This document shows, one piece after another, positions 13,223 to 56,350 of a stretch of 64,000 nt of DNA. The notes below the pieces were generated by a model. It saw only the letters and a list, made by a program, of their open reading frames with translations. It did not search any database and was not told the DNA's origin. The stretch's first letter is position 1. Every line of letters starts with the position of its first letter. The translations under genes were made by a program, and so were the position numbers. The DNA is taken from positions 2,145,040 to 2,209,039 of the forward strand of contig OY969934.1 in NCBI GenBank assembly GCA_963704725.1, written 5' to 3'. The stretch comes from an uncultured Actinomycetes bacterium (lineage in GTDB: Bacteria > Actinomycetota > UBA4738 > HRBIN12).

Positions 13223-13984
<762 letters not shown>

Positions 13985-14054
13985 GATCGGAAGCTCCTTC
14001 GCGAACGCACCACTACGGGCGCCGCCACCCTATCGAACGCCCCGCCCCCGACCG

Positions 14055-14126: not shown

Positions 14127-14358
14127 GGGATCGCAAGGGTAGCATCCGAGGCCAACGGTTCCCGAGACGCGGCGTCCGCCGGCCGGCTCGAACCAGGGGG
14201 GATAAGGAGACGGCGGCGCGTGCCCGCGTCGCGCCGCCGTCCATTCGGCCGAGCCTTGCAGCCCGGACGTTCGGCCGAAGTGTGGCACCGGCACCACCCC
14301 GGCGCAACCCCTATTTCTCTTCGGCGCATACCCCGCCCGTTGGCTACCATCGGGAGCC

Positions 14359-15552: not shown

Positions 15553-15556
15553 GGCG

Positions 15557-15850: not shown

Positions 15851-16241
15851 CGGCGAACCTCAGCAGGAACCACACGACGGAGCCGTCGTCGCCCTCGTCG
15901 CCCACGCCCCAGGAGTCGGCCAGCCGATCGAGCAGGAACAGGCCCCACCCGGTCCCCGCCGAGGACCCGTGAGCGGACCCGGACACGTCGAATCCCCGGC
16001 CACGATCGGCGACCTCGATGTAGAGCTCGTGCGGGGCGGTGCGGATCAGCACCGTGATCGTCTCCTCGTCCGTGAGCCCGGCGTGCCGGATCGCGTTGGT
16101 CATCAGCTCCGACAGCAGCAGCCTGGCGTCGTCGAGCGTGGAGCGCGGGACCCGGTCCGAGAGACCGTCGAGGACCCGGCGACCCATGGCGGGCGCGGAG
16201 TGGTGCGGCCGGAAGGAGACCCGAGCCTCTTCCATCGCCAC
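15843..16241 (-). CDS. Anti-sigma regulatory factor-type serine protein kinase (RsbW/SpoIIAB-like, HATPase_c only)
   Basis: 132 aa. N-box ELMTNAIRHA, G1 DRGRGF, G2 GTGWGL. No HisKA domain. Confidence 0.8.
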   Translation of the reverse strand: MAMEEARVSFRPHHSAPAMGRRVLDGLSDRVPRSTLDDARLLLSELMTNAIRHAGLTDEETITVLIRTAPHELYIEVADRGRGFDVSGSAHGSSAGTGWGLFLLDRLADSWGVGDEGDDGSVVWFLLRFADA

Positions 16242-16292
16242 GGGCTCCTCGCCTCCCCTCGATCCCGGGGGCGACCCCTCTTCACTGTACTC

Positions 16293-40753: not shown

Positions 40754-41770
40754 TCAGCCCTTGCCCCGGATCCAGTACCCGACGGGGAAGAGCTGGAGCC
40801 GGATCCGGCGGCTCACGGCACCCCACACCCCTCGGGGCCACCAGATCGCGACGACCATGGCCACCAGGCCCAGCACGATCAGGTACCAGGCGCCGTACCG
40901 GGACAGGGTCTGCTGCAGGACGAAGAAGATCGCGGTTCCAACGATCGGGCCCTCGATCGTGCCGATCCCCCCGATCACGGTCACGAAGATCATCTGCGCC
41001 GAGAAGCCCACGCTGAACGCCGCCGAGGATTCGATCCCGAGCTGGCTGATGATCAGGATCGCCCCGGCCGCGCCGCAGCCGGCCGCCGCGACCAGGTACA
41101 CGATCCGTTTGGCGCGCGACACGCGGGCGCCGGCGCTCCGCGCGGCGGTCTCGTCGTCTCGGATCGCCGTGAGGACGAGCCCCAGCCGGCTTCGGAGCGT
41201 GAGGTAGACGGCGGTCAGTGCGGCCAGGACCACGGCGAGCGCTGCCCAGTACGTGTCCGCGCCGAGCGCCGTGGGGTCGAAGCCCGACAGGCCGGGCAGC
41301 CGCGCGCCGGTCCCGCCCCCGAGCGACCGGAAGCGGCTCACGATCAGATGGCACGTGTCGGCGGCCACCCAGGTGGCGATGGCGAAGTACCCGCCGCGCA
41401 GGCGCAGGAGCAGCAGCGAGATGGGCAAGGCAAGCACCGCGCAGCCGAGCGTCGCGAACGGGACGGCGACGAACGGGCTGACCCCGTGCTGCGCCAGGAC
41501 CAGCACGAGGAACGCCCCGATCCCCACGTACGCCTGCTGCCCGACGGAGACGAGGCCGGCGTAGCCAGCGAGCAAGTTCCACATGCTCGACATCGTGAGC
41601 AGGATGAAGACGTTCACGAGCGTGTCCGTGGTGCTCGAGAACACCAGGTACGGCAGGTAGCCGAGCACGAGCACGATCACCGCGGCTACGGCGAGCGACC
41701 CGGCGACCGGTCGCCGCGACCGGGACACGCGGACGGCGGCGGACGTGGTCTCGGTCGACGGGTCCGGCAC
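40754..41770 (-). CDS. livM: Branched-chain amino acid ABC transporter permease (LivM-like)
   Basis: BPD_transp_2 permease, 338 aa. Confidence 0.85.
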   Translation of the reverse strand: MPDPSTETTSAAVRVSRSRRPVAGSLAVAAVIVLVLGYLPYLVFSSTTDTLVNVFILLTMSSMWNLLAGYAGLVSVGQQAYVGIGAFLVLVLAQHGVSPFVAVPFATLGCAVLALPISLLLLRLRGGYFAIATWVAADTCHLIVSRFRSLGGGTGARLPGLSGFDPTALGADTYWAALAVVLAALTAVYLTLRSRLGLVLTAIRDDETAARSAGARVSRAKRIVYLVAAAGCGAAGAILIISQLGIESSAAFSVGFSAQMIFVTVIGGIGTIEGPIVGTAIFFVLQQTLSRYGAWYLIVLGLVAMVVAIWWPRGVWGAVSRRIRLQLFPVGYWIRGKG

Positions 41771-41773
41771 GGC

Positions 41774-42640
41774 TCAGTCCTCCCGCCCGCGCGCGATGCC
41801 CCGCGGTCGCACCGCGAGCACGGCGAAGAAGACGAGGTGGCCGCTCAGCACCCCGTACGCGGGATCGATGTGCGCACCGATCGTCTGCGCCACGCCCAGG
41901 ACGATGCCCCCGACGAGCGTCCCCCACAGCGACCCCAGCCCGCCGATCACGACGGTCTCGAACGCGAACAGGAGACGGCTCGGCCCGATGCTCGGGTCGA
42001 ACGTGGAGTACGCGCCGAACGCCAGGCCGGCCAGGGCCACCGTCGACAGCGCAAGCGCGGCCGCGATGCCGAACACGTGCCGGTAGTCGATGCCGGAGAT
42101 CTGGCTCGCCTCGCGGTCGTCGGCAACGGCGCGGATCATCCGGCCCGTCGCCGACCTCGACAGGAAGTACTGCAGGCCGAGGAGCACGCCCACCGCAAGG
42201 ACGAAGATCCCGAGCGACAGGTACGCCACCGAGATCTCCGACGTGAGGTGGAAGGACCCGGACTTCAGCGTTCCCAGGTCGATCGAACGGCTGTCGGCCG
42301 AGAGGAACTCCAACAACCCGTTCTGGATCACGATCGACAACCCGAAGCTCACGAGGAGCACCGTGAGCGGCCCGCGCGCCAGGCTCGTCTGGATGAGCGA
42401 GCGCTGTCCGACGTACCCGATCGCGGCGAAGAGGGGAACCACGACCACGAACGCGTAGAGCTGCGGGATCCCCAAGGCGGGCACCAGCCCGACGGCCAGG
42501 TACGCGGCCACGACCGCGAGGTCCCCGTGCGCCAGGTTGATCACCCGCATCGTCCCGAACAGGAGCGACAACCCGCACGCGAGGAGCGCGAACAGACCGC
42601 CGAGCAGGACCCCCTGGACGACGACGTTCAGCCAGTCCAC
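41774..42640 (-). CDS. livH: Branched-chain amino acid ABC transporter permease (LivH-like)
   Basis: BPD_transp_2 permease, 288 aa. Confidence 0.85.
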   Translation of the reverse strand: MDWLNVVVQGVLLGGLFALLACGLSLLFGTMRVINLAHGDLAVVAAYLAVGLVPALGIPQLYAFVVVVPLFAAIGYVGQRSLIQTSLARGPLTVLLVSFGLSIVIQNGLLEFLSADSRSIDLGTLKSGSFHLTSEISVAYLSLGIFVLAVGVLLGLQYFLSRSATGRMIRAVADDREASQISGIDYRHVFGIAAALALSTVALAGLAFGAYSTFDPSIGPSRLLFAFETVVIGGLGSLWGTLVGGIVLGVAQTIGAHIDPAYGVLSGHLVFFAVLAVRPRGIARGRED

Positions 42641-42647
42641 GTCGACC

Positions 42648-43394
42648 TCACGCCGTCTCGGACGCGGCGAGCCCGAAGTACGCCGATTCGATCTCCGTCG
42701 GCGTGAACTCGCCGGGCCGCCCCTGGAGCGTCGTCCGCCCCTTGAGGAGGCATTGGATCGTGGTCGCGACCCGCACTGCCTGGCTCACGTCCTGCTCCAC
42801 CAGCAGGATGGTGGTTCCCGCCGCGAGCAACTCGGGCAGGACCCCGTAGATCTGGCGGACGACGATCGGCGCCAGTCCCAGCGAGAGCTCGTCGAGCAGC
42901 AGCAGACGCGGGTTCGACACGAGCGCCCGGCCCAGCGCGACGGCCTGCTGTTCCCCGCCCGAGAGCTGCCACGCGCGCTGGCGGCGTCGCTCCGGCATCC
43001 AGCGGAAGAGCTCGTAGATGCGATCGATCGTCCACGGCCCCGGCCGCGCGTGATACGTGCCGACGAGCAGGTTCTCCTCCAGGGTGAGAGACGGGAACAG
43101 GCGCCGACCCTCGGGGACGAGCGCGATCCCGGCGGCGAACCGTCGCTCGGGCGGTTTCGCGGTCACGTCCACACCGTCGAGCAGGACCCGGCCGGCCAGC
43201 GGGCGATGCAGGCCGGCGATCGTTCGGAGCAGGGTCGACTTGCCGGCGCCGTTGGCCCCGATGATCGCCCGCACCTCGCCGGCGGCCACCCGAACGTTCA
43301 GCTCGTGCAGCGCCCGAAGCTGTCCGTGGGCGACCGTCAGGTCGCGGACCTCGAGGAGGGGAACCCCTCCGCCGCCGGGCGCCGGTTCGCTCAC
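42648..43394 (-). CDS. livF: Branched-chain amino acid ABC transporter ATP-binding protein (LivF-like)
   Basis: Walker A GANGAGKST, signature LSGGEQQ, Walker B LLLDELS. Confidence 0.9.
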   Translation of the reverse strand: MSEPAPGGGGVPLLEVRDLTVAHGQLRALHELNVRVAAGEVRAIIGANGAGKSTLLRTIAGLHRPLAGRVLLDGVDVTAKPPERRFAAGIALVPEGRRLFPSLTLEENLLVGTYHARPGPWTIDRIYELFRWMPERRRQRAWQLSGGEQQAVALGRALVSNPRLLLLDELSLGLAPIVVRQIYGVLPELLAAGTTILLVEQDVSQAVRVATTIQCLLKGRTTLQGRPGEFTPTEIESAYFGLAASETA

Positions 43395-44167
43395 GACGAT
43401 CGGGCTCTCCCCTCGCCGACCCCCGCCTCCGCCAGGGCATCGGCCGTCGCCTCCGTGCCCAGGAAGACCTCCTTCACGGCCGGGCTCGCCAGCACGGCTT
43501 CGGGATCGCCCTGCCCGACGATCCGGCCACCGGCCAGGCAGACCATCCGATCCACGGTGTCGGTGAGCGCGCGCACGACGTGCTCGATCCAGACGACGCC
43601 GACGCCCTCGAGCCGAACGCTCCGCACGATCTCGACCAGGTCGCCGACCTCGGGGTCGGTCAGCCCGCCGGCGACCTCGTCCAGCAGCAGCAGCTTGGGA
43701 CGCGTCGCCAGGGCGCGCGCCAGCTCGAGCCGCTTGCGCTGGAGCAGACCCAGCGCTCCGGCCGGCCCGTTGGCAAGCTCCGCGAGCCCCGTGCGCTCGA
43801 GCGCCGACGCCGCCAGCTCGAAGCTCTCCGCCCCGCGGGCACCCGCCCCCTGCTGGGCGGCCAGGAGCGTGTTCTCGAACACCGTCATGTCATGGAACGG
43901 CCGGGGCACCTGGTAGGTACGCCCGATGCCGAGCCGGGACCGCCGGGCGGCGTCGAGCCTGGTGATCGGCCTGCCCTCGAAGCGGACCTCCCCGCCGTTC
44001 GGCGTGAGATCTCCCGACATGATCCCGAACAGGCTCGTTTTGCCGGCGCCGTTGGGCCCGACGATGCCGAGTGCCTCACCCGCCCGGACCTCGAGCGTCA
44101 GATCGTCGGCCACGACGACCTGGCCGAACCGCTTCTCGATGCGGTCCAGCTCGAGGAGGGCACCCAC
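43391..44167 (-). CDS. livG: Branched-chain amino acid ABC transporter ATP-binding protein (LivG-like)
   Basis: Walker A GPNGAGKTS, Q-loop, signature, Walker B LLLDEVA. GTG start chosen at 44167. Confidence 0.85.
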   Translation of the reverse strand: MGALLELDRIEKRFGQVVVADDLTLEVRAGEALGIVGPNGAGKTSLFGIMSGDLTPNGGEVRFEGRPITRLDAARRSRLGIGRTYQVPRPFHDMTVFENTLLAAQQGAGARGAESFELAASALERTGLAELANGPAGALGLLQRKRLELARALATRPKLLLLDEVAGGLTDPEVGDLVEIVRSVRLEGVGVVWIEHVVRALTDTVDRMVCLAGGRIVGQGDPEAVLASPAVKEVFLGTEATADALAEAGVGEGRARSS

Positions 44168-44177
44168 GGACCGCAGA

Positions 44178-45554
44178 CTAGGCGTTCGTCGGGACCAGGT
44201 CGCCGCCGATCGGGACGTCCGGGTTGATGCTGTTGTCGACGACGACCATCTCCCAGTCGAAGTTCGTGCCCGGCTTCCACTGCACACCCACCGGGTTCAC
44301 GATCCCGATCCCGGGGATCGTGGGGCTGTTCGGGTCCGCAGGGTCGATGTGCGGTCCGGTCGTGAAGTCGAGCGGGCCGGACATGCCCGTGTAGTTCACC
44401 TTGAACAGGGCGTCCGCGACCGCGTCGCCGTCGTGCGGGTCGTCGACGGTGGCGAACGCCTCCTTCGCCACCTCGAACAGCGAGTAGGTCGACCCCAGCG
44501 TCTGCAGCCACTGGGCGCCGGTCTCCTCCTGGAACGCGTTGGCCAGGTCCTCGGCCGTGTCGCCGGACAGGCTCGAGGTGTACGGCATGAACGGGCCCCA
44601 CCAGGAGTCGGTCGCGATGTTGTTCACGAGGTCGCCGAGCGCCTCGGTCTCCGCCGGGAACAGCAGGACCTTGGCCACCGTGGCCAGCTTCGGCGCGTAG
44701 CCCTGCTGCGCCGCCTGCGTCCAGAACGTGTTGAAGTCGGGCGGCAGCGGCGCGTTGATGTAGATCTGGCAGTCCTGCTGCTTGAACTGCGAGATCATCT
44801 GCGAGAAGTCGGTGAGCTGCAGGTCCGGATAGGCGCCGCCGTCCACGAACGTGTAGCCGGCCGCGTCGATGATGCCCGGCCACGCGTCGCGGAACGCATT
44901 GCCGTCCGCGTCGTTGGGGAACATGCCGCCGACGACCTTGTTCGTGTCGACGCGGTTCCACATCGGGACGAAGCACCCGCCGAACGCCTCCGCGCCGAAG
45001 AAGAACATCGTGGAGTAGGTGAACGGCTGGGGGTTCGCCGGATCGGCCTGCCGCGCGAAGTACCACGCCTGCCACGGCACCACCGTCGACAAGCACGGGA
45101 CCTTCGCCGACTCGCACGCGGTCGCGACCGGGTTCGTCGTCTCCGGCGTGGAGCTCGTCACGATCAGGTCCGCGTGGTTCTGGTTGATGAGCTCGCGGGC
45201 GACCTGGGACGCGCGGTTGGGGTCCGACTGAGAGTCCTTCACGACGACCTCGACCGAGTAGGTCGTTCCGCCGACCTGGAAGCCGTTCTGGTACGCGTCG
45301 GTGGCCCTGATCCGGTCGACGACGAAGTTGTCACCAGAGGCGAAGCCGGCCAGGGCTCCGGTCTGCGGGGTCACGAACCCAATCACGATCGTGTCGGTGC
45401 TTCCGCTCCCCGATCCCTTCACGTCGCTGGTACAGGCGTCGAGGATCCCCCCGGCCCCCAGCATCACCGCGCCCGCGCCGATCCCCTTCAGGAGAGACCG
45501 GCGGGAGATCGCCTGCTCGAGCAGCGGGTCCCATCGCTCCCGCTCGGCCATACG
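44178..45554 (-). CDS. ABC transporter substrate-binding protein (Leu/Ile/Val-binding family, type I PBP) with Tat-like signal
   Basis: RRSLLKGIGAGAV twin-arginine-like signal plus a Cys lipobox; periplasmic-binding-protein fold; first gene of the liv-like operon. Confidence 0.8.
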   Translation of the reverse strand, partial: RMAERERWDPLLEQAISRRSLLKGIGAGAVMLGAGGILDACTSDVKGSGSGSTDTIVIGFVTPQTGALAGFASGDNFVVDRIRATDAYQNGFQVGGTTYSVEVVVKDSQSDPNRASQVARELINQNHADLIVTSSTPETTNPVATACESAKVPCLSTVVPWQAWYFARQADPANPQPFTYSTMFFFGAEAFGGCFVPMWNRVDTNKVVGGMFPNDADGNAFRDAWPGIIDAAGYTFVDGGAYPDLQLTDFSQMISQFKQQDCQIYINAPLPPDFNTFWTQAAQQGYAPKLATVAKVLLFPAETEALGDLVNNIATDSWWGPFMPYTSSLSGDTAEDLANAFQEETGAQWLQTLGSTYSLFEVAKEAFATVDDPHDGDAVADALFKVNYTGMSGPLDFTTGPHIDPADPNSPTIPGIGIVNPVGVQWKPGTNFDWEMVVVDNSINPDVPIGGDLVPTNA

Positions 45555-45676
45555 TCCCCCTTTCCCCCACCCCGCGCGTCCGGGCCGTCCGGAGAGCGCA
45601 CGGTCATTCGCAGCGCGGACTCTAGGCATGAACACCGGGCATGGTCAATCTCCTGCGCCGAGATGCAACGGCGCGA

Positions 45677-46504
45677 CTACTCGATGCCGGGCGCGGCCGG
45701 GCGGCCGGTCCCGCTCTGGGCCCGGAGATCGGCCTCGATCTGCTCCGCCGTTGCCCTCAGCTTCGGAACGAGCTCCGTCTCGAGGTCGTCCAGGCTCTTC
45801 ATCGACGCGTGCACCGGGACCGCCAGCCCGGCGATGACCCGGCCGGACTGATCGCGGATCGGCACGCCCACCGAGCGGAGGCCCTCCTCGAGCTCCTGAT
45901 CCACGAGTGCATACCCCCGCTCCCGTACCTCCTCGACGAGCGTTCGCAGCTCGCCGAGGAGGGACACGGTGTGCGACGTCAGCGGCTCCAGGCGGAGCCG
46001 CTCCAGGTAGCGCTCGAGCTCGTCGGGATCGAGCCCGGCCAGCAGGACCCGCCCCATCGATGTCGCGTACGCCGGCAGGCGGGTTCCCACGGGGATGGCC
46101 ACGATCATGATCCGCCGGGCGGGAACCCGCAGGACGCAGACCACCTCGTCCCCGTCCAGGACCCCGACCGTCGCCGACTCCTGCAGCGTCGTCACCAGCT
46201 CCTCGACGTGGGGCTGGGCCACCTCGAGGAAGCTCATCCCGGACAGGAACGCGTAACCGAGCTCGAGGACCCTCGGTCGCAGGGAGAACTCCCGTCCGTT
46301 CGAGCTGACGTAGCCGAGCTCGACGAGGGTATGCAGGAAGCGCCGGGCCGCCGAACGCGTGAGGCCCGTCGAGCGCGCCACCTCGCTCAGCGTGAGTCGC
46401 TCCTGGTCCTGTCCGAACGCCCGGATCACCGCCAACCCCCGGTCGAGCGCGCGGACGAAGTCGCCGTTTCGGCTGGGGTGGCTATCGTCGTCTGGGGTCG
46501 GCAC
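45677..46504 (-). CDS. pobR: IclR family transcriptional regulator (PobR/PcaR-like)
   Basis: N-terminal HTH (LTLSEVARSTGLTRSAARRFLHTLVELGY) plus IclR effector domain. Divergent from the ALDH-pobA operon. Start approximate. Confidence 0.75.
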   Translation of the reverse strand: MPTPDDDSHPSRNGDFVRALDRGLAVIRAFGQDQERLTLSEVARSTGLTRSAARRFLHTLVELGYVSSNGREFSLRPRVLELGYAFLSGMSFLEVAQPHVEELVTTLQESATVGVLDGDEVVCVLRVPARRIMIVAIPVGTRLPAYATSMGRVLLAGLDPDELERYLERLRLEPLTSHTVSLLGELRTLVEEVRERGYALVDQELEEGLRSVGVPIRDQSGRVIAGLAVPVHASMKSLDDLETELVPKLRATAEQIEADLRAQSGTGRPAAPGIE

Positions 46505-46655
46505 GGCGCGGTCACGATAGGAGGGGCCTCGCGGTCGGTCAACCGGTCCCCGCCCCTTGACAGTTCCGCGGGGTTCGTCGCACAGTCGCATCCGCTCCGC
46601 GCATGGCGCGTCCGCCGTGCGAACGGCGCGCTCGCTCCGGAAGGGGGGACGACCG

Positions 46656-48113
46656 GTGGCGCTTCTCGACACGGCCGCGTGGCCGAGCAAGATCTTCCAG
46701 GACGGCTGGGTGCCGGGCTCCGGAGGCGACCGAGCCGTCATCGAGCCGGCGACGGGCGACGAGCTCGGCCGCATCGGGCTCGCGAACGGCGCCGACGTCG
46801 CGCGGGCCGCCGCGCGCGCCTCCGAGGCGCAGCGCCCCTGGGCCGCAACGGGCTACCTCGAGCGCGGCGCGATCATGCGCCGGGCCGGCCGGCTCTTCGA
46901 GGAGCACGCCGAGGAGATCCAGGGCTGGATCATCCGCGAGACGGGGGCCATCCCGCCCAAGGCGCAGCTCGAGACGTGGTTCGCGGCGACGACCTGCTAC
47001 GAGTCGGCGGGCCTCACCTCGCTGCCGTACGGCGAGCTGCTGCAGACCCGCGACCCGATCCTCAGCATGTCGCGACGGATCCCCGTCGGCGTCGTCGGCG
47101 TGATCTCCCCCTTCAACTTCCCGCTGATCCTGTCGATCCGCGCGGTGGCACCGGCCCTGGCGCTCGGCAACGCCGTGATCCTGAAGCCCGATCCCCGGAC
47201 CTCCGTGGCCGGCGGCGTCGTCCTCGCCCGGATCTTCGAGGAGGCCGGCGTCCCGGAGGGCTTGTTCTCGGTGCTCCCCGGCGATGCCACGACCGGCGAG
47301 GCGCTCATCTCCGACCCCGGCGTGACCATGATCTCGTTCACCGGCTCCTCACGCGCCGGGAAACAGGTCGGTCAGCTCGCGGCGAAGCACCTGAAGCGCG
47401 CCCACCTGGAGCTGGGCGGCAACAACGCGCTGATCGTGCTCGACGACGTCGACGTCGAGCGAGCCGTGTCCGTCGGCGCGTTCGGCTCGTTCATGCACCA
47501 GGGACAGGTCTGCATGACGACCGGGAAACACCTGGTGGCGCGCGACATCGCCGACACGTACGCAGAGGTCCTCGCGGCGCACGCGGAGCACACCCCCGTC
47601 GGCAACCCCGCCACCGAGCAGGTCGCCCTCGGCCCGATCATCGACGAGCAGCAGCGGGATCGCGTGCATCGGATCGTCACCGACACCGTCGGTGCGGGCG
47701 CGCGCCTGGCCGCGGGCGGCACGTACGAGGGGCTCTTCTACCGCCCGACGGTCCTCGCCGACGTGCCCACGGATGCGCCGGCGTTCACCGAGGAGATCTT
47801 CGGCCCGGTCGCGCCCGTCGTGCCGTTCGACTCCATCGACGAGGCCGTCAAGCTCGCCGCGTCGAGCGAGCACGGGCTGTCGCTGGGGATCCTCACCCGG
47901 GACGTCATGAAGGGGCTCGAGATCGCCGAGCGCATACCGACCGGCGTGGTGCACATCAACGACCAGACCGTGTCCGACGAGGTGGTGAACCCGTTCGGCG
48001 GGGTGAAGGCGACGGGGAGCTCCTGGATCGGCGGACCCAGGGCGAACATCGAGGCCTTCACCACGACGCAATGGGTCACCGTGCGAGGCGACCTCCCCGA
48101 GTACCCGTTCTAG
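46656..48113 (+). CDS. NAD(P)-dependent aldehyde dehydrogenase (benzaldehyde/4-hydroxybenzaldehyde dehydrogenase-like)
   Basis: ALDH superfamily: catalytic Cys in QGQVCMT, Glu in ELGGNNA, cofactor motif FTGSSRAGK. Start approximate (GTG at 46656 or ATG at 46557). Confidence 0.85.
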   Translation: MALLDTAAWPSKIFQDGWVPGSGGDRAVIEPATGDELGRIGLANGADVARAAARASEAQRPWAATGYLERGAIMRRAGRLFEEHAEEIQGWIIRETGAIPPKAQLETWFAATTCYESAGLTSLPYGELLQTRDPILSMSRRIPVGVVGVISPFNFPLILSIRAVAPALALGNAVILKPDPRTSVAGGVVLARIFEEAGVPEGLFSVLPGDATTGEALISDPGVTMISFTGSSRAGKQVGQLAAKHLKRAHLELGGNNALIVLDDVDVERAVSVGAFGSFMHQGQVCMTTGKHLVARDIADTYAEVLAAHAEHTPVGNPATEQVALGPIIDEQQRDRVHRIVTDTVGAGARLAAGGTYEGLFYRPTVLADVPTDAPAFTEEIFGPVAPVVPFDSIDEAVKLAASSEHGLSLGILTRDVMKGLEIAERIPTGVVHINDQTVSDEVVNPFGGVKATGSSWIGGPRANIEAFTTTQWVTVRGDLPEYPF

Positions 48114-48133
48114 GCGGGCCCTCGGCGAGCGCG

Positions 48134-49318
48134 ATGCGAACGCAGGTCGGTATCGTGGGGGCGGGCCCCGCGGGGCTCCTGCTCTCGCACCTGCTGCACC
48201 TGAACGGGATCGACTCCGTCGTGCTGGAGGACCAAACGCGCGATCACGTCGAGCAGCGCGTGCGTGCCGGGGTCCTCGAGCAGGGCACGGTCGACCTGAT
48301 GCGCGAGACCGGCCTGGCCGACCGGCTCGACCGCGAGGGGCTCGTGCACCACGGCATCGAGCTCCGCTTCGCCGGGGAGGCGCACCGCATCCCGATGACC
48401 GACCTCACGGGTCGCTCGATCTACATCTACGGCCAGCAGGAGGTCGTGAAGGACCTCATCGCGGCCCGTGTGGCCGCCGGCGGCTCGATCCTGTTCGAGG
48501 TCGAGGACGTCCGGCCCGAGGGCTTCGACGGCGACGAGCCCGTGCTCCGCTTCCGGCGGGACGGCCGGGACTACGAGCTGCGGTGCGACGTGATCGCCGG
48601 CTGCGACGGCTCCCACGGCGTGTGCCGCGAGGCCGTCCCGGGCGGTGTGCTACGCACGCTCGAGATCGACTACCCGTTCGCCTGGCTCGGCGTGCTCGCC
48701 GCGGTGCCGCCCTCCACCGACGAGCTCATCTACGCGAACCACGAGCGCGGGTTCGCGCTGCACAGCCTGCGCTCACCCGAGATCAGCCGGCTCTATCTGC
48801 AGGTCGCGCCCGACGAGGACGTGGCCGACTGGCCGGACGAGCGCGTCTGGGACGAGCTGGGCCGGCGACTGGAGCTGCCCGGGTGGTCGTTGCGGACGGG
48901 ACCCGTGCTCGAGAAGAGCGTGGCGTACATGCGCAGCTTCGTCGTCGAGCCGATGCAGTACGGACGCATGTACCTGGCCGGCGATGCCGCGCACATCGTC
49001 CCGGCGACGGGCGCGAAGGGTCTGAACCTCGCCGTGAACGACGTCCGCGTGCTCTCCGAGGCCCTGTGCCACTGGTTCCGGACCGGCGAGACACGGCTCC
49101 TCGACGGGTACTCGGATCGCGTGCTGCAGCGCGTGTGGCGCGCGCAGAACTTCTCCCAGTGGATGAGCGCGATGCTGCATCGGTTCCCCGGCGCGGATCC
49201 GTTCACGGACCGGTTGCAGCGCAATCAGCTCGAGTACGTGTGCAGCTCCGTGGCGGCGGCCACCGGCCTGGCCGAGAACTATGTCGGGCTGCCGTTCGAC
49301 GTGACGGTGGCGGCATGA
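48134..49318 (+). CDS. pobA: 4-hydroxybenzoate 3-monooxygenase
   Basis: 394 aa. FAD motif VGIVGAGPAGLLL and a PHBH-specific fold; high collinearity with PobA. Confidence 0.9.
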   Translation: MRTQVGIVGAGPAGLLLSHLLHLNGIDSVVLEDQTRDHVEQRVRAGVLEQGTVDLMRETGLADRLDREGLVHHGIELRFAGEAHRIPMTDLTGRSIYIYGQQEVVKDLIAARVAAGGSILFEVEDVRPEGFDGDEPVLRFRRDGRDYELRCDVIAGCDGSHGVCREAVPGGVLRTLEIDYPFAWLGVLAAVPPSTDELIYANHERGFALHSLRSPEISRLYLQVAPDEDVADWPDERVWDELGRRLELPGWSLRTGPVLEKSVAYMRSFVVEPMQYGRMYLAGDAAHIVPATGAKGLNLAVNDVRVLSEALCHWFRTGETRLLDGYSDRVLQRVWRAQNFSQWMSAMLHRFPGADPFTDRLQRNQLEYVCSSVAAATGLAENYVGLPFDVTVAA

Positions 49319-50418
49319 CGGCGGCGCCGACGTGGCGAGCGGAGGTGGTCGGCAGCCTGCTCCGGCCCCCGTACCTGAAGGACGCGTTCGAGCGCGCCGA
49401 CCGGGGCGAGATCGACGATGTCGAGCTCGCGCGGACGCAGGACCGGGCGGCGCTCGAGGCCGTCGCGCTCCAGGAGGCGTGCGGCGTCGACGTGGTGACC
49501 GACGGCGAGGTCCGCCGGCGATTCTGGTTCGACCCGCTCACGGCGAGCCTGTCCGGCTACAACCCCGAGGAGACGGCCCCGGTGCCGTTCACCCGGGGCG
49601 GGGAGACCGCGGCCGGACCCCCGCCGAAGCTGCCCGTCGTCACCGAGCGGCTCGGCCTCGCGCGGAACCTCCCGCTCGAGGAGTTCGCGTTCCTGCGCGC
49701 CCACACGGAGCGACCGACCAAGGCGACGATCGCCGGGATGACGTACGCGAGCGTGCTGTACGTCCCGGGGATCTCCGAAGCGGCGTATCCGGACCGCGAG
49801 GAGTACATGGCGGATGCGTTGCGGCTCATGACCGAGGTGGTTCGCGAAGCCGCGGCGGCCGGCGTCCGGCACGTCCAGCTGGACTCGCCGCGCTACACGC
49901 ACCTGGTGAGCGAGGAGGGCCGGGCCAACCTGGCGAAGGTCGGCCTCGACCCCTCGACGTGGCTGTCGCAGATGATCGGGTACGACAACGCGCTGATCCG
50001 GTCGGTCCCCGAGGTGACGTGGGCCGTGCACCTGTGTCGCGGGAACCACCGCAGCATGTGGTCCGTGGAGGGCGGCTACGACGACATCGCGGAGCAGCTC
50101 TTCAACGGCCTCGAGGTCGACCGCATCCTGGCCGAGTACGACTCGCCGAGGTCCGGGACGTTCGAGCCGCTCCGTTTCGTCCCGCCCGAGAAGACGGTCG
50201 TGCTCGGCCTGATCACCACCAAGGAGCCCGAGCTCGAGGACGCCGACCAGCTCCGTCGCCGCATCGACGAGGCCTCGGCGTTCGTGTCGCTGGATCGGCT
50301 GGCGCTCTCCCCTCAGTGCGGCTTCGCCTCGACCCTGCCGGGCAACCTGGTGACCTTCGACGACCAGCGCGCCAAGCTCGAGCTCCTCGCCGGGGTGGCG
50401 CGCCGGGTGTGGGGGTAA
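49315..50418 (+). CDS. Cobalamin-independent methionine synthase II family protein (MetE-like Zn methyltransferase), paralog 2, translationally coupled to pobA
   Basis: 367 aa. Zn-ligand motifs AVHLCRGN and SPQCGFAS. ATG overlaps the pobA stop as ATGA. Confidence 0.8.
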   Translation: MTAAPTWRAEVVGSLLRPPYLKDAFERADRGEIDDVELARTQDRAALEAVALQEACGVDVVTDGEVRRRFWFDPLTASLSGYNPEETAPVPFTRGGETAAGPPPKLPVVTERLGLARNLPLEEFAFLRAHTERPTKATIAGMTYASVLYVPGISEAAYPDREEYMADALRLMTEVVREAAAAGVRHVQLDSPRYTHLVSEEGRANLAKVGLDPSTWLSQMIGYDNALIRSVPEVTWAVHLCRGNHRSMWSVEGGYDDIAEQLFNGLEVDRILAEYDSPRSGTFEPLRFVPPEKTVVLGLITTKEPELEDADQLRRRIDEASAFVSLDRLALSPQCGFASTLPGNLVTFDDQRAKLELLAGVARRVWG

Positions 50419-50425
50419 CCCGGGC

Positions 50426-50806
50426 TCAGCCCGGTCCGGCGTCCTGGAGCGCCCGGCCCGCGATCCGGAACGCCTCGTTCGCGGCCGGCACGCCGGCGTA
50501 GACCGCCGTGTGGAGCAGGACCTCGGCGATCTCCTGCGGCTCGAGCCCGAGCCGGCGCGCCGCTCGGACATGCATCTCGATCTCCTGGTGACATCCGAGC
50601 GCGGTGAGGACGGCGAGCGTGATGCACGAGCGCGTCCGGCGGTCGAGCCCGGGCCTGGCCCACACCCCGCCCCAGGCGGATCGGGTCACGTAGTCCTGGA
50701 AGGGTGCGCTGAACGCGGTCGTGGACGCGATCGCCGCGTCGACGTGCTCGTCGCCGAGCACCTCGCGTCGCACGCCCATGCCGGTCTCGTACGTCGGATC
50801 GATCAT
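50426..50806 (-). CDS. pcaC: 4-carboxymuconolactone decarboxylase
   Basis: 126 aa CMD/AhpD-like domain (GGVWARPGLDRRTRS, HQEIEMHVRAA). Confidence 0.85.
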   Translation of the reverse strand: MIDPTYETGMGVRREVLGDEHVDAAIASTTAFSAPFQDYVTRSAWGGVWARPGLDRRTRSCITLAVLTALGCHQEIEMHVRAARRLGLEPQEIAEVLLHTAVYAGVPAANEAFRIAGRALQDAGPG

Positions 50807-51579
50807 CGTGCCTCCTCGCTCGCGAGCAGGTGCTCGCGGATCAGGGCGGTCACCTCCTCGGGACGCTCCACGTTCGCCAGGTGCGCGGCGTCCACCGTGG
50901 CGGCGCGGCACCTCGGGATGCCCTCGGCGAGGAGCCGGGCATCGTCCTGCGGCATCGAGGGATCTCGCGCCCCCGACACGACGAGCGTGTCGGCCCGGAT
51001 GTCGCCGAGAGCCGCGCGCAGGTCCGCGGTCCCGACCGCCTCGCAGCACGCCGCGTAGCCCTCGGGCGGCGTCGCGGCGATCATGTCGCGCATTCTCGTC
51101 ACGACCGCGGGCTCCCGCCGCGCGAACCCGGGCGTGAACCATCGGCCCACCACCAGGTCGGCCACGGCGCCCGTGCCCTCGGCCCGGACGAGCGCGGCGC
51201 GTTCGAACCAGGCCGCGGGCGGAGCGAATCGCGGCGAGGTGCAGCACAGCACGAGGCGATCCACGCGATCGGGCGCGTGCGCCGCCACCCACATCGAGAC
51301 CATCGCCCCGATCGAGAGCCCGGCGAGGTGCGCGCGCTCGACGCCGAGGCCATCCAGTAGCGCGAGCAGATCCGCGCCGAGGTCCGAGAGGTCGTACGGC
51401 GGCGGCGGGACCGGTGACCGGCCGTGCCCGCGCAGGTCGTAGCGAACGACGCGGAAGTCCTCCGCCAACACCGCGACCTGCGGTTCCCACATGTCGAGCG
51501 TGCTGCCGAGCGAGTTCGACAGGACCAGGACGGGCCCGCCGGGCGGCCCCTCGACGAGGTGGTGGACCTCGACGCTCAC
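50803..51579 (-). CDS. pcaD: 3-oxoadipate enol-lactonase
   Basis: Alpha/beta hydrolase with GLSIGAM nucleophile elbow. GTG start overlaps the pcaB stop as GTGA. Confidence 0.85.
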   Translation of the reverse strand: MSVEVHHLVEGPPGGPVLVLSNSLGSTLDMWEPQVAVLAEDFRVVRYDLRGHGRSPVPPPPYDLSDLGADLLALLDGLGVERAHLAGLSIGAMVSMWVAAHAPDRVDRLVLCCTSPRFAPPAAWFERAALVRAEGTGAVADLVVGRWFTPGFARREPAVVTRMRDMIAATPPEGYAACCEAVGTADLRAALGDIRADTLVVSGARDPSMPQDDARLLAEGIPRCRAATVDAAHLANVERPEEVTALIREHLLASEEAR

Positions 51580-52931
51580 GAGCCGCGGTGTGCCGCGAGC
51601 GCCCGGTCGACCAGAGCCTCGGCGCTGCCGAGGTAGCCGGAGGGATCGAGGAGCTCCCCGATCGCGTGCGCCGAGAGCTGCGCCGAGACCTCCGGGCTCC
51701 GCTCGAGGACCTCCGCGAACGGCCGCCCCTGCGAGACGGCGAGCGCGCTCGCGTCCTCGACGAGCCGGTGCGCCTCGAGGCGGCCGAGGGCGGGGGCAAG
51801 CGCGGACACCACCCGCTCGGCGAGCAGCAGCCCTCCCGTCCGATCGAGGTTCGCGCGCATCGTCGACGCGTCCACCTGTAGGTGCTCGAGGCAGTCCCGG
51901 AGCCACGCCGCCGCGGACCCCACCGAGATCAGCAGGGTGCCGAGGGGAAGCCATTCGGCGTGCCACGCGCCCGCCGCGCGCTCGTGCTCCGGCGAGGCGG
52001 CCGCCAGGATCGTCGACACGAGCCCCGGCGCCTGCCGGGCGCACGCGATCGCGCTCACCGCGGCGATGGGGTTCCGCTTGTGCGGGAGCGTGGACGATCC
52101 GCCCCGGCCCGGCGCGCCCTCGCGCACCTCTCCCACCTCGGTCTGTGCCAGCAGGACGACGTCGCCGGCAGCCTTGCCGATCGCGCCGGCGGCCTCGCCC
52201 AGCGCACCGGCGACCTCGGAGACCCGCGTGCGGTCGGTGTGCCAGGGCAGGATCGGGTGCGCCAGCCCCAGCTCGTCGGCGAACGCGGCCGCCACCGCGG
52301 GCCCGGACTCACCGAGGGAGGCGAGCGTGCCGGCCGCGCCACCGAGCTGGGCCGCCAGCCGCCGGTCGCGCACCGACGTCAGGCGCTCGGCCGCCTCGTC
52401 GAGGGCCACCATCCACCCGGCGGCCTTCAGCCCGAACGTCGTCGGGAGCGCCTGCTGCAGCAGCGTCCGAGCCGCCATCGGCGTGGCGCGATGCCGGTCC
52501 GCCTGGTCGGCCGCGGCGTCGGCGGCCGCCCGCAGGTCGTCCAGGAGCGGCTCGAGGCTGCGGCGGACGACCAGCATCGCGGCGGTGTCCATCACGTCCT
52601 GGCTCGTCAGGCCCCGATGGACGTGCCGCGCCGCCGAGCCCCCCACGGCCTCGGTCAGCGCGGCGACGAGTGGGACGACCGGGTTGCCGTCGTCCGCGGC
52701 CTGCCGGCCGATCGCCCCGACGTCGAACGCCTCGGCGCGGCAGGCCCGGGCGATCGCCTCGGCGTCCTCGGCCGGAGCGAGACCCACCCGCGCCAGGGCC
52801 CGGGCGAGCGCCGCCTCGGCGTCGAGCATCGCCTGGAGCCACGCGCGATCGCCGGCCTCGTGGCGAACCCGGCCGCGGGCCAGGACGCCCTCGAACAGGC
52901 CGCCCTCAGAGGTCGAAGAAGACGGTCTCAC
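51576..52931 (-). CDS. pcaB: 3-carboxy-cis,cis-muconate cycloisomerase
   Basis: Fumarase/aspartase-family lyase fold (GSSTLPHKRNP signature). Confidence 0.9.
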   Translation of the reverse strand: MRPSSSTSEGGLFEGVLARGRVRHEAGDRAWLQAMLDAEAALARALARVGLAPAEDAEAIARACRAEAFDVGAIGRQAADDGNPVVPLVAALTEAVGGSAARHVHRGLTSQDVMDTAAMLVVRRSLEPLLDDLRAAADAAADQADRHRATPMAARTLLQQALPTTFGLKAAGWMVALDEAAERLTSVRDRRLAAQLGGAAGTLASLGESGPAVAAAFADELGLAHPILPWHTDRTRVSEVAGALGEAAGAIGKAAGDVVLLAQTEVGEVREGAPGRGGSSTLPHKRNPIAAVSAIACARQAPGLVSTILAAASPEHERAAGAWHAEWLPLGTLLISVGSAAAWLRDCLEHLQVDASTMRANLDRTGGLLLAERVVSALAPALGRLEAHRLVEDASALAVSQGRPFAEVLERSPEVSAQLSAHAIGELLDPSGYLGSAEALVDRALAAHRGS

Positions 52932-53448
52932 CGTCGCCCTGCAGCCGGATGTCGAACCGGTACCCGTCCTCGCTCCGCCGAGCCAGGAGCGTCTCGCGGC
53001 GCGAGGGATCGACGGCGTCCAGGACGGGATCGGACGCGTTCGCCGCCTCCTCGTCCTCGAAGTAGATCCGAGTCGCAGCCCGCTTGAGGAGCCCGCGGGC
53101 GAAGACCGAGACGTCGACGTGGGGCGCCTGCACGACGCCGTTCGGTCCCGCCAGCCGGCCGGGCTTCACCGTCAGGATCCCCCACTCGCCCGCCGGGTCG
53201 GTCGAGGCCCGCCCGAACCCCCGGAAGGGTCCCGTCGCCGGCGCGTCGGGGAACCGGCCGTCCGCGTCGGCCTGCCACGTCTCGACCATCGCGTCGGGCA
53301 CGGGTTCGCCGGCGCCGTCAAGGACGCGACCGCGGATCCACAGCGCTCCGGTCGCGCCCTCCGCGACGACGTGGGGACCTGCCGGCCACGGCAGGCCGAT
53401 GGCGAAGAAGGGCCCCACCGTCTGCGACGGCGTGCGCCCCGCGCTCAA
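52906..53448 (-). CDS. pcaG: Protocatechuate 3,4-dioxygenase alpha subunit
   Basis: Intradiol dioxygenase alpha-chain (TPSQTVGPFF...). Only usable start is TTG at 53448, overlapping the pcaH stop as TTGA. Confidence 0.8.
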   Translation of the reverse strand: MSAGRTPSQTVGPFFAIGLPWPAGPHVVAEGATGALWIRGRVLDGAGEPVPDAMVETWQADADGRFPDAPATGPFRGFGRASTDPAGEWGILTVKPGRLAGPNGVVQAPHVDVSVFARGLLKRAATRIYFEDEEAANASDPVLDAVDPSRRETLLARRSEDGYRFDIRLQGDGETVFFDL

Positions 53449-54173
53449 CCGTCGCCGTCCCGCTCGAAGGGGGTCGAGGCTCGGCCCCCCACGACGATGT
53501 CGAACTCGAAGCCCAGCGCCCACTCCGGGACCGTCTCGGACAGGTCGAACCGAGAGATCAGCCGGCTTCGCGCCGCGGGGTCCGGGATCGAGTTGAAGAT
53601 CGGGTCCTGCCCGAAGAGCGGATCGTCCGGGAAGTACATCTGCGTGACGAGGCGCTGCGTGAAGTTGCGCCCGAACACGGAGAAGTGCACGTGGGCCGGC
53701 CGCCAGGCGTTCGCGTGGTTGCGCCACGGGTACGCCCCCGGCCTGATCGTCACGAACCGGAACCGGCCCTCGTCGTCCGTGACGCATCGGCCCGCTCCCG
53801 TGAAGTTCGGATCGAGCGGTGCCGGGTGGTTGTCGCCGTCGTGGCGGTACCGCCCGGCCGCGTTCGCCTGCCACACCTCCACGAGCGACCGGCGGATGGG
53901 CCGCCCGTCCGGACCCAGGAGCGTGCCGTGCACGATGATCCGCTGCCCCTGGGGCTCGCCCCCATGCCCGGCCGTGAGGTCGTGGTCGAGCTCGCCGACC
54001 CGGTCGTATCCGAGGAGCGGACCGCCCAGCGCCGCGAGATGGTCGGGCATGGCAACCAGCGGCCGCAGCGGGGCCCGCAGCCGAGTCGCCACGTAGTCGG
54101 GGTACAGGTACGGGGGATCGACGTCGGCGACGTCGGCCGCCTCGATCGCTCGAGCGGCGGGCTCTGGCGGCAT
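53445..54173 (-). CDS. pcaH: Protocatechuate 3,4-dioxygenase beta subunit
   Basis: Intradiol dioxygenase beta-chain with Fe ligands (YRHDGDNHP, RPAHVHF). Confidence 0.9.
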   Translation of the reverse strand: MPPEPAARAIEAADVADVDPPYLYPDYVATRLRAPLRPLVAMPDHLAALGGPLLGYDRVGELDHDLTAGHGGEPQGQRIIVHGTLLGPDGRPIRRSLVEVWQANAAGRYRHDGDNHPAPLDPNFTGAGRCVTDDEGRFRFVTIRPGAYPWRNHANAWRPAHVHFSVFGRNFTQRLVTQMYFPDDPLFGQDPIFNSIPDPAARSRLISRFDLSETVPEWALGFEFDIVVGGRASTPFERDGDG

Positions 54174-54412: not shown

Positions 54413-55525
54413 ATGCGCAGACGCGTCCTCTCGCTGCTCTCGGTCCTGTGTCTCCTGGCGCTCGCGACGCTCGGATCCACCGCCGCCGCAAGCTCGCGGC
54501 ACGACCCGTCGGCCGCCCGGCACCGGCGCGGCTACCGCGTCTCGGACCTCGTCTCCGACGTGGCCGGCGAGGCCCGCCACCTCGACCCCGATCTCGTGAA
54601 CGCCTGGGGGCTCGCCGCGGGGCCCACCTCGCCGTGGTGGGTGTCCGACAACCACGCGGACGTCTCGACGATCTACGACGGCGCGGGCACCGTCTCGGAC
54701 CTCGTGGTCGGGGTGGACGGCGGCGTCACCGGGCTGGTCTTCAACGGCGGGACCGACTTCGTGGTCGAGAACGGCATCTACTCGGGACCCTCGATCTTCC
54801 TGTTCGACACCGAGGCCGGGACGATCGTCGGCTGGAACCCGGGCGTTCCACCACCCTCGCCCTCGACGTCGAGCTTCGTCGTGGCGGACCGTTCGAACGT
54901 CGGCGCGATCTACAAGGGCCTCGCCATCGCCTCGACGGCGGACGGTGACTTCCTGTATGCGGCCGACTTCCACAACGCGCGGGTCGACATGTTCGACGGC
55001 GACTTCACCCTCGTCAGCGACGACACCACGTTCGTCGATCCCGACATCCCCGACGGCTTCGCCCCCTTCGGCATCCAGAACATCGACGGGACGATCTTCG
55101 TCGCGTACGCCAAGCAGGACGCCGCCGCGGAGGACGAGGAGGCGGGCGCTGGACTCGGCTACGTCGACATGTTCGGCACCGACGGGGCGTTCCTGGGACG
55201 TGTCGCGTCGCAGGGCACCCTGAACGCGCCGTGGGGGCTGGCCATGGCGCCGGCCGACTTCGGCCGTTTCAGCGGCGACCTGCTCGTGGGCAACTTCGGC
55301 GACGGACGGATCCACGCCTATCGTGCCGCGGCCGGCGGGGCGTTCATGCACGCCGGAGCGCTTCGGGCCCGCAACGGGCACCCGGTCACGATCGACGGGC
55401 TGTGGGCGCTCGAGTTCGGCACGGGCGACGTGGCCGGTCCGACGAACGCTCTGTACTTCACCGCGGGGCCCCAAAACGAGACGCACGGACTGTTCGGCAA
55501 GATCGTCGCGGTCCCGCGCTCCTGA
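54413..55525 (+). CDS. Secreted TIGR03118-family beta-propeller protein
   Basis: Signal peptide MRRRVLSLLSVLCLLALA, then repeat blades (NAWGLA, NAPWGLA); start taken at the internal Met of the track ORF. Confidence 0.7.
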   Translation: MRRRVLSLLSVLCLLALATLGSTAAASSRHDPSAARHRRGYRVSDLVSDVAGEARHLDPDLVNAWGLAAGPTSPWWVSDNHADVSTIYDGAGTVSDLVVGVDGGVTGLVFNGGTDFVVENGIYSGPSIFLFDTEAGTIVGWNPGVPPPSPSTSSFVVADRSNVGAIYKGLAIASTADGDFLYAADFHNARVDMFDGDFTLVSDDTTFVDPDIPDGFAPFGIQNIDGTIFVAYAKQDAAAEDEEAGAGLGYVDMFGTDGAFLGRVASQGTLNAPWGLAMAPADFGRFSGDLLVGNFGDGRIHAYRAAAGGAFMHAGALRARNGHPVTIDGLWALEFGTGDVAGPTNALYFTAGPQNETHGLFGKIVAVPRS

Positions 55526-55704: not shown

Positions 55705-56295
55705 CTACACCCACAGGAGGGCGACGGAGGCCACGAGGAGAACGGCGAGCGCGACGCTCACACCTCGACGCCTCCGTTCGTCCTCGATCACACGGCCGAG
55801 GGCGGCCCCGCCCGCCGCCCAGATCGAGGCCGACACGAGGACGACCACCATGAGCGTGCCGGTGAGCAGGATGACGCCGACGAGCCGAGGCAGCGCACGC
55901 GGCAGGAACGTGCCAACCGCGGCGACGGCGAAGATCCACGCCTTCGGGTTGACCCACTGGAACACGACGGCCCGCGGCACGGTGAGCGGGCGGGACACGT
56001 TCGCCCGTCCCACGGCGCCGCTCTCCAGGACCAGGTACGCCACGTACAGCAGATAGGCAGAGCCCACGACCTTGAGGACGAGCTCGGCCGCGGGCACGGC
56101 GTCGAGGAGGACGCCGATGCCGGTCGCCACGCCGATCACGAGCCCGCCGATCCCGAGCGCCGTCCCCACGACGTGCGGCATCGTCCGGCCGAACCCGAAC
56201 CGGAGTCCCGAGGCCCACAGCACCGCGTTGTTCGGGCCGGGCGACACCGAGCCCACGAAGGCGAAGCCCACGAGCGCCGCGAGCTCGCTCACCAT
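55705..56295 (-). CDS. LysE/RhtB family amino-acid exporter
   Basis: 196 aa, 6 TM, LysE-type N-terminus (FVGSVSPGPNN). Confidence 0.8.
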   Translation of the reverse strand: MVSELAALVGFAFVGSVSPGPNNAVLWASGLRFGFGRTMPHVVGTALGIGGLVIGVATGIGVLLDAVPAAELVLKVVGSAYLLYVAYLVLESGAVGRANVSRPLTVPRAVVFQWVNPKAWIFAVAAVGTFLPRALPRLVGVILLTGTLMVVVLVSASIWAAGGAALGRVIEDERRRRGVSVALAVLLVASVALLWV

Positions 56296-56350
56296 CGGGG
56301 GCGGGATCGACGTGCCATCGCCACCATCAAAGGACGGGCGGCCCGGGGCG

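Follow-up and report, generated by a model that had tools for sequence, protein, structure and literature searches.

What is a methionine-synthase-type gene doing inside an operon for the breakdown of 4-hydroxybenzoate? The question arises from a 64,000-nucleotide stretch of DNA from an uncultured Actinomycetes bacterium (contig OY969934.1, positions 2,145,040 to 2,209,039), here called the window, in which pobA is followed by a short relative of metE, the gene for cobalamin-independent methionine synthase. An initial annotation had raised, as one hypothesis, that this MetE-like gene encodes an aryl methyl-ether O-demethylase or a methyl shuttle for anisate/anisaldehyde-type substrates. O-demethylation is known to hold back the valorisation of lignin, both microbial and engineered, and the known O-demethylases need oxygen and a reductant (Rieske and P450 enzymes), tetrahydrofolate (THF) recycling (LigM) or cobalamin. 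Here we report that the MetE-like gene is linked to pobA in two phyla, describe its active site, and weigh the O-demethylase reading, which we favour tentatively, against its alternatives. The three genes of the operon are the following (window coordinates, strand):

46656-48113, +, aldehyde dehydrogenase (ALDH) of aromatic type, divergent from the adjacent regulator (Aldedh, 468 bits)
48134-49318, +, pobA, 4-hydroxybenzoate 3-monooxygenase (NF006091, 597 bits against a cutoff of 351; TIGR02360, 529 bits)
49315-50418, +, MetE-like gene, 367 aa, catalytic domain only (PF01717, 43 bits against a cutoff of 21; third-position G+C 0.96)

The ALDH gene comes first and is separated from pobA by 20 nt. 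The ATG of the MetE-like gene shares three bases with the TGA stop of pobA in an ATGA junction (GGCGGCATGACGGCG, read directly), the overlap that the initial annotation had picked out.

Results

Conserved linkage of the MetE-like gene to pobA

An exhaustive, profile-free homologue search over 1.84 billion representatives assigned the MetE-like protein to just one cluster at 50% identity, with a score of 588 bits. From there, scores fell to at most 318 bits, with no more than 47% identity for the full-length clusters, and the wider family comprised 602 clusters under E 1e-30. Members of the clade to which the query belongs share at least 60% identity. We then surveyed the loci that carry the gene, taking one genome per species (57 loci) and identifying neighbours by tblastn with the proteins of the window; the survey patterns were made from the MetE-like peptide only, so that they carry no bias towards pobA. 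Except for one distant alphaproteobacterial relative, all 57 loci come from metagenome-assembled genomes (MAGs) of uncultured Actinomycetes, Actinomycetota, Solirubrobacterales or Chloroflexota/Chloroflexia.

Among the 51 loci whose MetE-like copies have at least 60% identity, pobA lies within 3.5 kb of the gene in 39 and an ALDH gene within the same distance in 33. All 39 pobA-linked loci are aromatic-acid clusters, and most carry pca genes in the same locus. By way of comparison, we estimate, without having computed it, that chance would bring a random gene this near to a given single-copy gene in some 0.2% of 4-Mb genomes. The linked loci display at least five gene orders (MetEL, MetE-like gene):

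ALDH-pobA-MetEL, in the window and about a dozen other Actinomycetes-type loci
ALDH-MetEL with pobA inverted, in L001
pcaHGBDC-ALDH-MetEL-pobA, in L006 (Chloroflexia)
ALDH-MetEL-pobA-pcaB, in L040
pobA and an IclR gene upstream on the other strand, in L011
GntR-MetEL-GCV_T-MFS-pobA, in 22 Solirubrobacterales loci (MFS, major facilitator superfamily transporter)

In a neighbour-joining tree, pobA-linked members are spread over the clade's whole crown, down to the deep branch L040. No aromatic neighbours were found around the paralogues in Rhodococcus, Rubrobacter, Klebsiella and Roseinatronobacter, whose contexts also differ from one another; across plasmid and chromosomal paralogue contexts (these four genera and Nonomuraea) we found no shared theme and no clue to a methyl donor. 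A linkage that survives rearrangement in both Actinomycetota and Chloroflexota argues for a functional link between the MetE-like gene and pobA rather than an accident of position, and a functional link to aromatic catabolism is strongly supported. The initial annotation had considered a MetE-type gene within a 4-hydroxybenzoate operon unusual and meaningful, and had noted that orthologues might prove never to be linked to aromatic genes. The first point is borne out by a linkage that is conserved in the clade and absent from its paralogues; as to the second, the orthologues are linked in two phyla and several orders.

Two features of the homologue set concern data quality. In L046, L052, L055 and L056, alignments between the window proteins and the MetE-like gene with the genes around it fall apart into several pieces, and in the last three of these loci identity is lowered as well. 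This suggests that assembly errors have introduced frameshifts, rather than that the genes are true pseudogenes. The long 'fusion' relatives, one with a LysR domain and others with an extension that matches no family, are probably artefacts of gene calling.

Domain, fold and active site of the MetE-like protein

The sole Pfam match of the MetE-like protein is PF01717, over residues 21-338, and the folate-binding N-domain of MetE (PF08267) gave no match in its 367 aa, compared with about 750 aa for canonical MetE. Its best NCBIfam match is PRK06520 (263.6 bits against a cutoff of 313), with PRK06233 at 194 bits against 576, both full-length and both below cutoff; together with the gap between clusters, these scores indicate that the clade is a separate branch. 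TIGR01371 and PRK05222, the models for canonical MetE, gave scores of 22 and 25 bits, where their cutoffs are 930 and 541. Among solved structures, the nearest is an uncharacterised Listeria protein, 1ypx (E 1e-57, full length). An AlphaFold2 model of the MetE-like protein (predicted local distance difference test score, pLDDT, 88.4) has the (beta/alpha)8 barrel of the MetE C-terminal domain, with a Foldseek template-modelling (TM) score of 0.74 to both 1ypx and the C-terminal barrel of Thermotoga maritima MetE (1t7l).

Alignment with E. coli MetE and paralogues shows four invariant Zn ligands, H239, C241, E274 and C335, which correspond to E. coli His641, Cys643, Glu665 and Cys726 and lie where barrel strands 5, 6 and 8 end. 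The Zn- and homocysteine-type ligands that the initial annotation had read in the motifs HLC and CGF are therefore kept, as H239-L-C241 and C335-G-F337, with E274 as a fourth ligand. Three homocysteine binders, S14, E65 and D190, are invariant in the same alignment and conserved family-wide; in T. maritima MetE, Ser411, Glu462 and Asp577 hold the carboxylate and amino group of homocysteine (PMC539065). Its profile match, fold, Zn ligands and homocysteine binders place the protein in the MetE catalytic-domain superfamily. A role like that of the uroporphyrinogen decarboxylases was considered and rejected in view of the full Zn/homocysteine site.

The donor side is different. RRRFWFD stands in place of ERNDMVE, replacing the folate-contacting DMV motif, and by our reading of the alignment, which has gaps near Glu583, neither Trp nor Glu occupies the counterparts of Trp539 and Glu583. 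Judged from these residues, the protein retains the acceptor half of methionine synthase, with the donor half lost or changed.

To describe what occupies the donor side, we defined a position as clade-specific if it was at least 95% invariant in 118 clade members and at most 15% in 110 paralogues. There are 38 such positions, most of them directly after barrel strands 2-5. They include F72, P74, T76, S78 and Y82; G141-L148; and S191, R193, H196, S199, G202, N205, W216, H245, M248, S250 and V251. Counted as invariant in the clade are, among others, F72, Y82, M142-L148, R193, H196, W216, H245 and M248. In the AlphaFold2 model the clade-specific residues occupy the face of the barrel that carries the active site, the side on which MetE binds its methyl donor. 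The clade therefore has a strictly conserved donor-side pocket of its own, which is rich in aromatic residues and contains one Arg and two His.

Relation to characterised families

Closest to the clade is the 1YPX or YxjG-YxjH type (PRK06233, PRK06520), which has the same single barrel of about 370 aa (full-length match, TM 0.74) and the common motifs LCRGN, EYD..R.G.FEPL and SPQCGFAS. These proteins share about 29-47% identity with the clade, and they belong to methionine regulons (T-box, luxS) whereas the clade belongs to pobA/pca clusters. In the literature searched, no methyl donor has been established for the YxjG/YxjH family. Canonical MetE has in common with the clade the C-terminal barrel, the Zn ligands His/Cys/Glu/Cys and the homocysteine binders Ser/Glu/Asp; its N-terminal folate barrel and DMV motif are both absent from the clade protein.

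The core synthases MesA-MesD are, like the clade protein, MetE catalytic domains that have no folate domain and need a methyl source other than methyl-folate; they are reported to depend on corrinoid proteins or on MesX/DUF1852 and oxygen (Price et al. 2021, PMC7857596; Deobald et al. 2020, PMC7005905), and no such partner is found in this cluster. Their similarity to the clade protein is low (3rpd, E 3e-9; PRK04326, 83 bits; PRK09121, 58 bits). The homocysteine S-methyltransferases of PF02574 (the MetH N-domain, BHMT, MmuM) have in common with it a Zn-activated homocysteine acceptor and use varied direct donors, but form a different family, with rat BHMT (1umy) a marginal Foldseek match (TM 0.37).

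With PF01717 as its sole Pfam match, the MetE-like protein has none of the known aryl O-demethylase folds (GCV_T in LigM/DesA, Rieske in VanAB/LigX, P450 in GcoA/PbdA, corrinoid). The role that we propose for it below is shared with LigM/DesA of Sphingobium SYK-6, namely cofactor-light, oxygen-independent aryl O-demethylation into protocatechuate cleavage, yet the analogy is functional only: LigM/DesA has the GCV_T fold, is metal-free and uses THF as acceptor, whereas the clade has the MetE fold, Zn and a proposed thiol acceptor. Searches of the literature for a MetE-like O-demethylase, for homocysteine-linked vanillate demethylation and for methionine synthase II with 4-hydroxybenzoate found neither such an enzyme nor this clade described.

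Layout of the locus and its regulation

The window has a G+C content of 70-75%, and we set gene boundaries from the listing of open reading frames (ORFs) and third-position G+C. Around the operon lie the following genes:

45677-46504, -, IclR-family regulator of the PcaR/PcaU/PobR type (TIGR02431 pcaR_pcaU, 304 bits against a cutoff of 284.75; HTH_IclR and IclR_C)
50426-50806, -, pcaC (above its NCBIfam equivalog cutoff, as are the next four)
50803-51579, -, pcaD
51576-52931, -, pcaB
52906-53448, -, pcaG
53445-54173, -, pcaH
40754-45551, -, Liv-type ATP-binding cassette (ABC) importer of five genes, downstream of the regulator (Pfam)
44178-45551, -, substrate-binding protein of the importer (Peripla_BP_6)
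43391-44167 and 42648-43394, -, two ATPases of the importer (ABC_tran in each)
41774-42640 and 40754-41770, -, two permeases of the importer (BPD_transp_2 in each)

These assignments bear out every element of the initial annotation, which had described a PobR-like IclR regulator, a divergent aldehyde dehydrogenase, pobA in the operon and pca genes directly downstream on the opposite strand. The full ORF of the regulator spans 45677-46774 (-), with GTG 46504 as its most likely start, and a -35/-10-like site lies just ahead of this probable start at 46542-46514. Among solved structures the top relative of the ALDH is 4-hydroxybenzaldehyde dehydrogenase (9jw2, 347 bits), then benzaldehyde dehydrogenase (3r64) and vanillin dehydrogenase (9ihb). 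The pca operon, for ortho-cleavage of protocatechuate, converges on the MetE-like gene, with 7 nt between the stops of the latter and pcaC. No S-adenosylmethionine (SAM) or B12 riboswitch and no T-box was found in the window, which suggests that control of the MetE-like gene has moved to the aromatic regulon.

Every gene from 40754 to 54173 falls in another family than the corrinoid proteins and MesX/DUF1852, leaving no such partner within the cluster, and no monooxygenase other than pobA was seen there. The importer is kept beside the cluster, its substrate-binding protein being present in 13 related loci (12 at 67-88% identity and one at 45%). For this protein we found neither a solved relative nor an NCBIfam match, and the transporter offers no choice between vanillate and 4-methoxybenzoate.

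The window also holds a second short MetE-like gene (34547-35611, +; 354 aa), 25% identical to the pobA-linked one. It retains the GS, GE, D, H-x-C, E and C columns, its best NCBIfam match is PRK04326 at 68 bits, far under the cutoffs, and it has neither aromatic neighbours nor a riboswitch. Beside pcaH, the gene at 54413-55525 (+) encodes a 370-aa protein with a predicted signal peptide, with no Pfam match at E 1e-5 and no homologue in related loci. Just past pcaH (55705-57172) stand a LysE-type amino-acid exporter and a divergent AraC regulator, a pair kept only in the closest relative L001 (~18800-18900). We considered the LysE protein as a methionine exporter, an idea left without support by its conservation in L001 only.

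Demethylation and one-carbon genes across loci

An ALDH, a demethylase and PobA form the exact enzyme set for converting p-anisaldehyde to protocatechuate, and also the union of what vanillin and 4-hydroxybenzaldehyde require. Using the LigM-like protein of L017 and the LigXa-type Rieske protein of L047 as tblastn queries, we found no homologue within +-10 kb in the Actinomycetes-type or GCV_T-type groups of loci, and the other genes of the cluster in the window all fall into families other than these. The Solirubrobacterales clusters add genes for Amidohydro_2, a MaoC hydratase, a short-chain dehydrogenase/reductase, a zinc alcohol dehydrogenase and a PaaK-like coenzyme A (CoA) ligase, a set that matches the domains of the Rhodococcus Cou pathway, with a likeness at the level of domain families only. 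The Cou pathway shortens p-coumarate and ferulate to 4-hydroxybenzoate and vanillate (PMC4737184). A Cou-like set yielding these two products would mean that the Solirubrobacterales clusters need both PobA and a vanillate demethylase.

Further one-carbon genes appear where pobA is missing or where a second small gene is present. In the pobA-less loci L014, L017 and L038, PurU and a PF02574 homocysteine S-methyltransferase lie 4-9 kb away, and L017 and L038 add a gene for methylenetetrahydrofolate reductase (MTHFR) as well as a true orthologue of LigM, which scores 528 bits against 5x1i. The island that these loci share (L017 13558-19477, L038 11874-19472, L014 13484-16995) contains DUF6282, PIG-L, an RraA-like aldolase, an extradiol dioxygenase, PurU and PF02574, and looks like a THF-linked methoxy-aromatic meta-cleavage cluster. 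In L047 (Chloroflexota, 8810-18014), likewise without pobA, two more MetE-like paralogues, an MTHFR gene and a Rieske O-demethylase of LigXa type surround the clade copy; the MetE-like genes there are at 8810-9970, 9986-11092 and 13343-14437, and a LigB-type dioxygenase was also read in this locus by eye.

In 22 Solirubrobacterales loci, a gene for a 218-aa protein made up of the folate-binding GCV_T domain only (PF01571, 77 bits) starts 1-5 nt past the stop of the MetE-like gene:

L023 11088-11744, small GCV_T gene, followed by the MFS transporter and pobA; likewise in 21 further loci, e.g. L016, L018-L037 and L049-L051

This small GCV_T family is narrow, with 141 homologues. A GntR/GCV_T/Amidohydro_2 module without the MetE-like gene occurs on other contigs, of which we examined three. 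Directly after it, on the other strand, two of the three (L066 8161-10841 and L067 8307-12691) carry one or two PF02574 genes that are 68% identical to the PF02574 gene beside PurU in L017; on the third contig the module lies inside a pca cluster, with no PF02574 gene. One PF02574 gene of L067 is a 607-aa fusion with a class-I SAM-methyltransferase domain. The presence of PF02574 in place of the MetE-like gene may represent an analogous displacement of one Zn/homocysteine methyltransferase fold by another. That two unrelated folds of this kind occur in the same neighbourhood strengthens the case for thiol methylation, and also keeps alive a relay through folate.

Two loci of the basal Chloroflexota group show another setting: in L043 (10505-12329) and L044 (7607-9538), the MetE-like gene lies a few kb from GrdA-/GrdB-like candidates (glycine/sarcosine/betaine reductase), read by eye.

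Discussion

We tentatively propose that the MetE-like protein is a methoxybenzoate:homocysteine methyltransferase, independent of cobalamin and of a folate domain, that acts as an aryl O-demethylase feeding PobA and PcaHG. An O-demethylase that supplies the ALDH/PobA/pca route is the most economical reading, because the ALDH/PobA set fits the anisaldehyde route, no other demethylase was found within +-10 kb in the two main groups of loci, and some pobA-less orthologues have one-carbon, LigM and LigXa neighbours. Gene context and active-site conservation are the basis on which we infer what donates and what accepts the methyl group, which way the reaction runs and what individual residues do. 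The O-demethylase proposal of the initial annotation is partly supported: the functional link, the aromatic context and the intact Zn/homocysteine site now stand on evidence, and the chemistry is predicted from gene context and active-site conservation.

According to this model, the MetE-like gene would be co-translated with PobA under the PcaR/PobR-type regulator. Zn would be held by His239, Cys241, Glu274 and Cys335, and L-homocysteine, or a very similar amino-acid thiol, would be bound through Ser14, Glu65 and Asp190, its thiolate displacing Glu274 on Zn as in MetE. In place of methyl-THF, a methoxybenzoate (4-methoxybenzoate, vanillate or a relative) seated in the pocket of clade-specific loops would give up its O-methyl group. 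In an SN2 (bimolecular nucleophilic substitution) reaction, the Zn-activated thiolate would attack the carbon of the aryl methyl ether to give methionine and free hydroxybenzoate. Arg193 may anchor the carboxylate of the ether, and His196 or His245 may protonate the phenolate oxygen as it leaves. 4-Hydroxybenzoate would pass to PobA and protocatechuate to PcaHG-BDC, while the upstream ALDH would turn anisaldehyde, 4-hydroxybenzaldehyde or vanillin into the acids. Either 4-methoxybenzoate or vanillate may be the substrate: the close coupling to pobA speaks for 4-methoxybenzoate, its product being the substrate of PobA, and the Cou-like clusters favour vanillate. LigM demethylates vanillate by a direct SN2 reaction with a weaker nucleophile, N5 of THF, and this precedent makes demethylation by a thiolate chemically plausible.

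Several considerations weigh against this proposal. All clade members come from uncultured MAGs and are known from genes alone, and the sub-cutoff score to PRK06520 makes even the family-level name of the protein uncertain. Seven Chloroflexota loci with no link to pobA form a separate basal subclade at 60-65% identity. We know of no enzymatic precedent for direct thiolate attack on an aryl methyl ether, the transfer to N5 of THF by LigM being the nearest analogue. The translationally coupled GCV_T gene hints that THF takes part, which the simple model does not need. A catabolic flux that uses up a homocysteine for every methoxy group would be expensive, and no genes for homocysteine regeneration were seen in the loci, although no systematic search was made. 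The enzyme may scavenge methyl groups as a methionine synthase instead of serving in bulk catabolism, or it may use another acceptor. In favour of the proposal, distant YxjH-type relatives are under methionine T-box control and co-transcribed with luxS, whose product makes homocysteine (PMC6004538), so that homocysteine methylation is likely to be the ancestral chemistry.

The alternative that survives best, although we regard it as unlikely, is a folate relay in which a THF-dependent demethylase (LigM or the small GCV_T protein) produces 5-methyl-THF and the MetE-like protein, as an aromatic-inducible methionine synthase, moves the methyl group to homocysteine and frees THF. It would account for the GCV_T gene 1-5 nt behind the MetE-like stop in Solirubrobacterales, for PurU near L014, L017 and L038 and LigM and MTHFR near two of them, and for the adjacency of the GntR/GCV_T/Amidohydro_2 module to PF02574 homocysteine methyltransferases elsewhere; in MetH, the PF02574 fold serves methyl-folate-dependent methionine synthesis. 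However, the MetE-like protein has no folate N-domain and its DMV motif is replaced, and neither a small GCV_T gene nor a LigM-like homologue occurs within 10 kb in the window or the other Actinomycetes-type loci. The relay would also leave the problem of homocysteine regeneration in place. Characterised core MetE enzymes are reported to take methylcobalamin and not methyl-THF in vitro (PMC7857596, PMC7005905). A relay in which the GCV_T protein passes methyl groups from methionine or S-methylmethionine to THF was considered and rejected on chemical grounds, since we infer that an aryl methyl ether would be unable to drive sulfonium formation.

A different reaction altogether strikes us as a still weaker candidate: another alkyl transfer or a thiol addition to an aromatic intermediate, on the model of epoxyalkane:coenzyme M transferase (EaCoMT), or cleavage of a methyl ester in place of a methyl ether. 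Function is plastic in this superfamily, to which EaCoMT belongs as another short MetE relative; the donor-side pocket of the clade is unlike that of all paralogues; and contexts vary greatly across the broad family. Against this, the binders of the amino and carboxylate groups of homocysteine are invariant, the clusters have no conserved enzyme that would form an epoxide or a quinone, and the one-carbon context, where present, concerns methyl groups (LigM, MTHFR, PurU).

Finally, the protein might be a methionine synthase, ordinary or conditional, that draws on a non-aromatic methyl donor and hitch-hikes in the operon. This is very improbable: distant relatives such as YxjH are methionine-regulated methionine-synthase candidates and the window has its second short MetE-like gene, but in Actinomycetota and Chloroflexota the linkage has come through at least five rearrangements, translation of the gene is coupled to that of pobA, the window has no methionine or B12 riboswitch, and the assigned cluster genes include no corrinoid-protein or DUF1852 partner.

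Should the proposed O-demethylation prove correct, it may extend to a new structural class of aerobic aryl O-demethylase, a possibility about which we are doubtful: a MetE-fold Zn enzyme with no cobalamin, oxygen or folate domain that would transfer lignin O-methyl groups to homocysteine, widespread in uncultured soil Actinomycetota and Chloroflexota and accompanied in some lineages by the 218-aa GCV_T partner. If so, a Zn enzyme of one polypeptide that passes methyl groups to a thiol would solve the catalytic problem in a new way and make an attractive tool. The large, uncharacterised 'methionine synthase II' family, with its thousands of homologues, would gain a first physiological methyl donor, and the enzyme would tie lignin methoxy groups directly to methionine and one-carbon supply in abundant uncultured soil bacteria.

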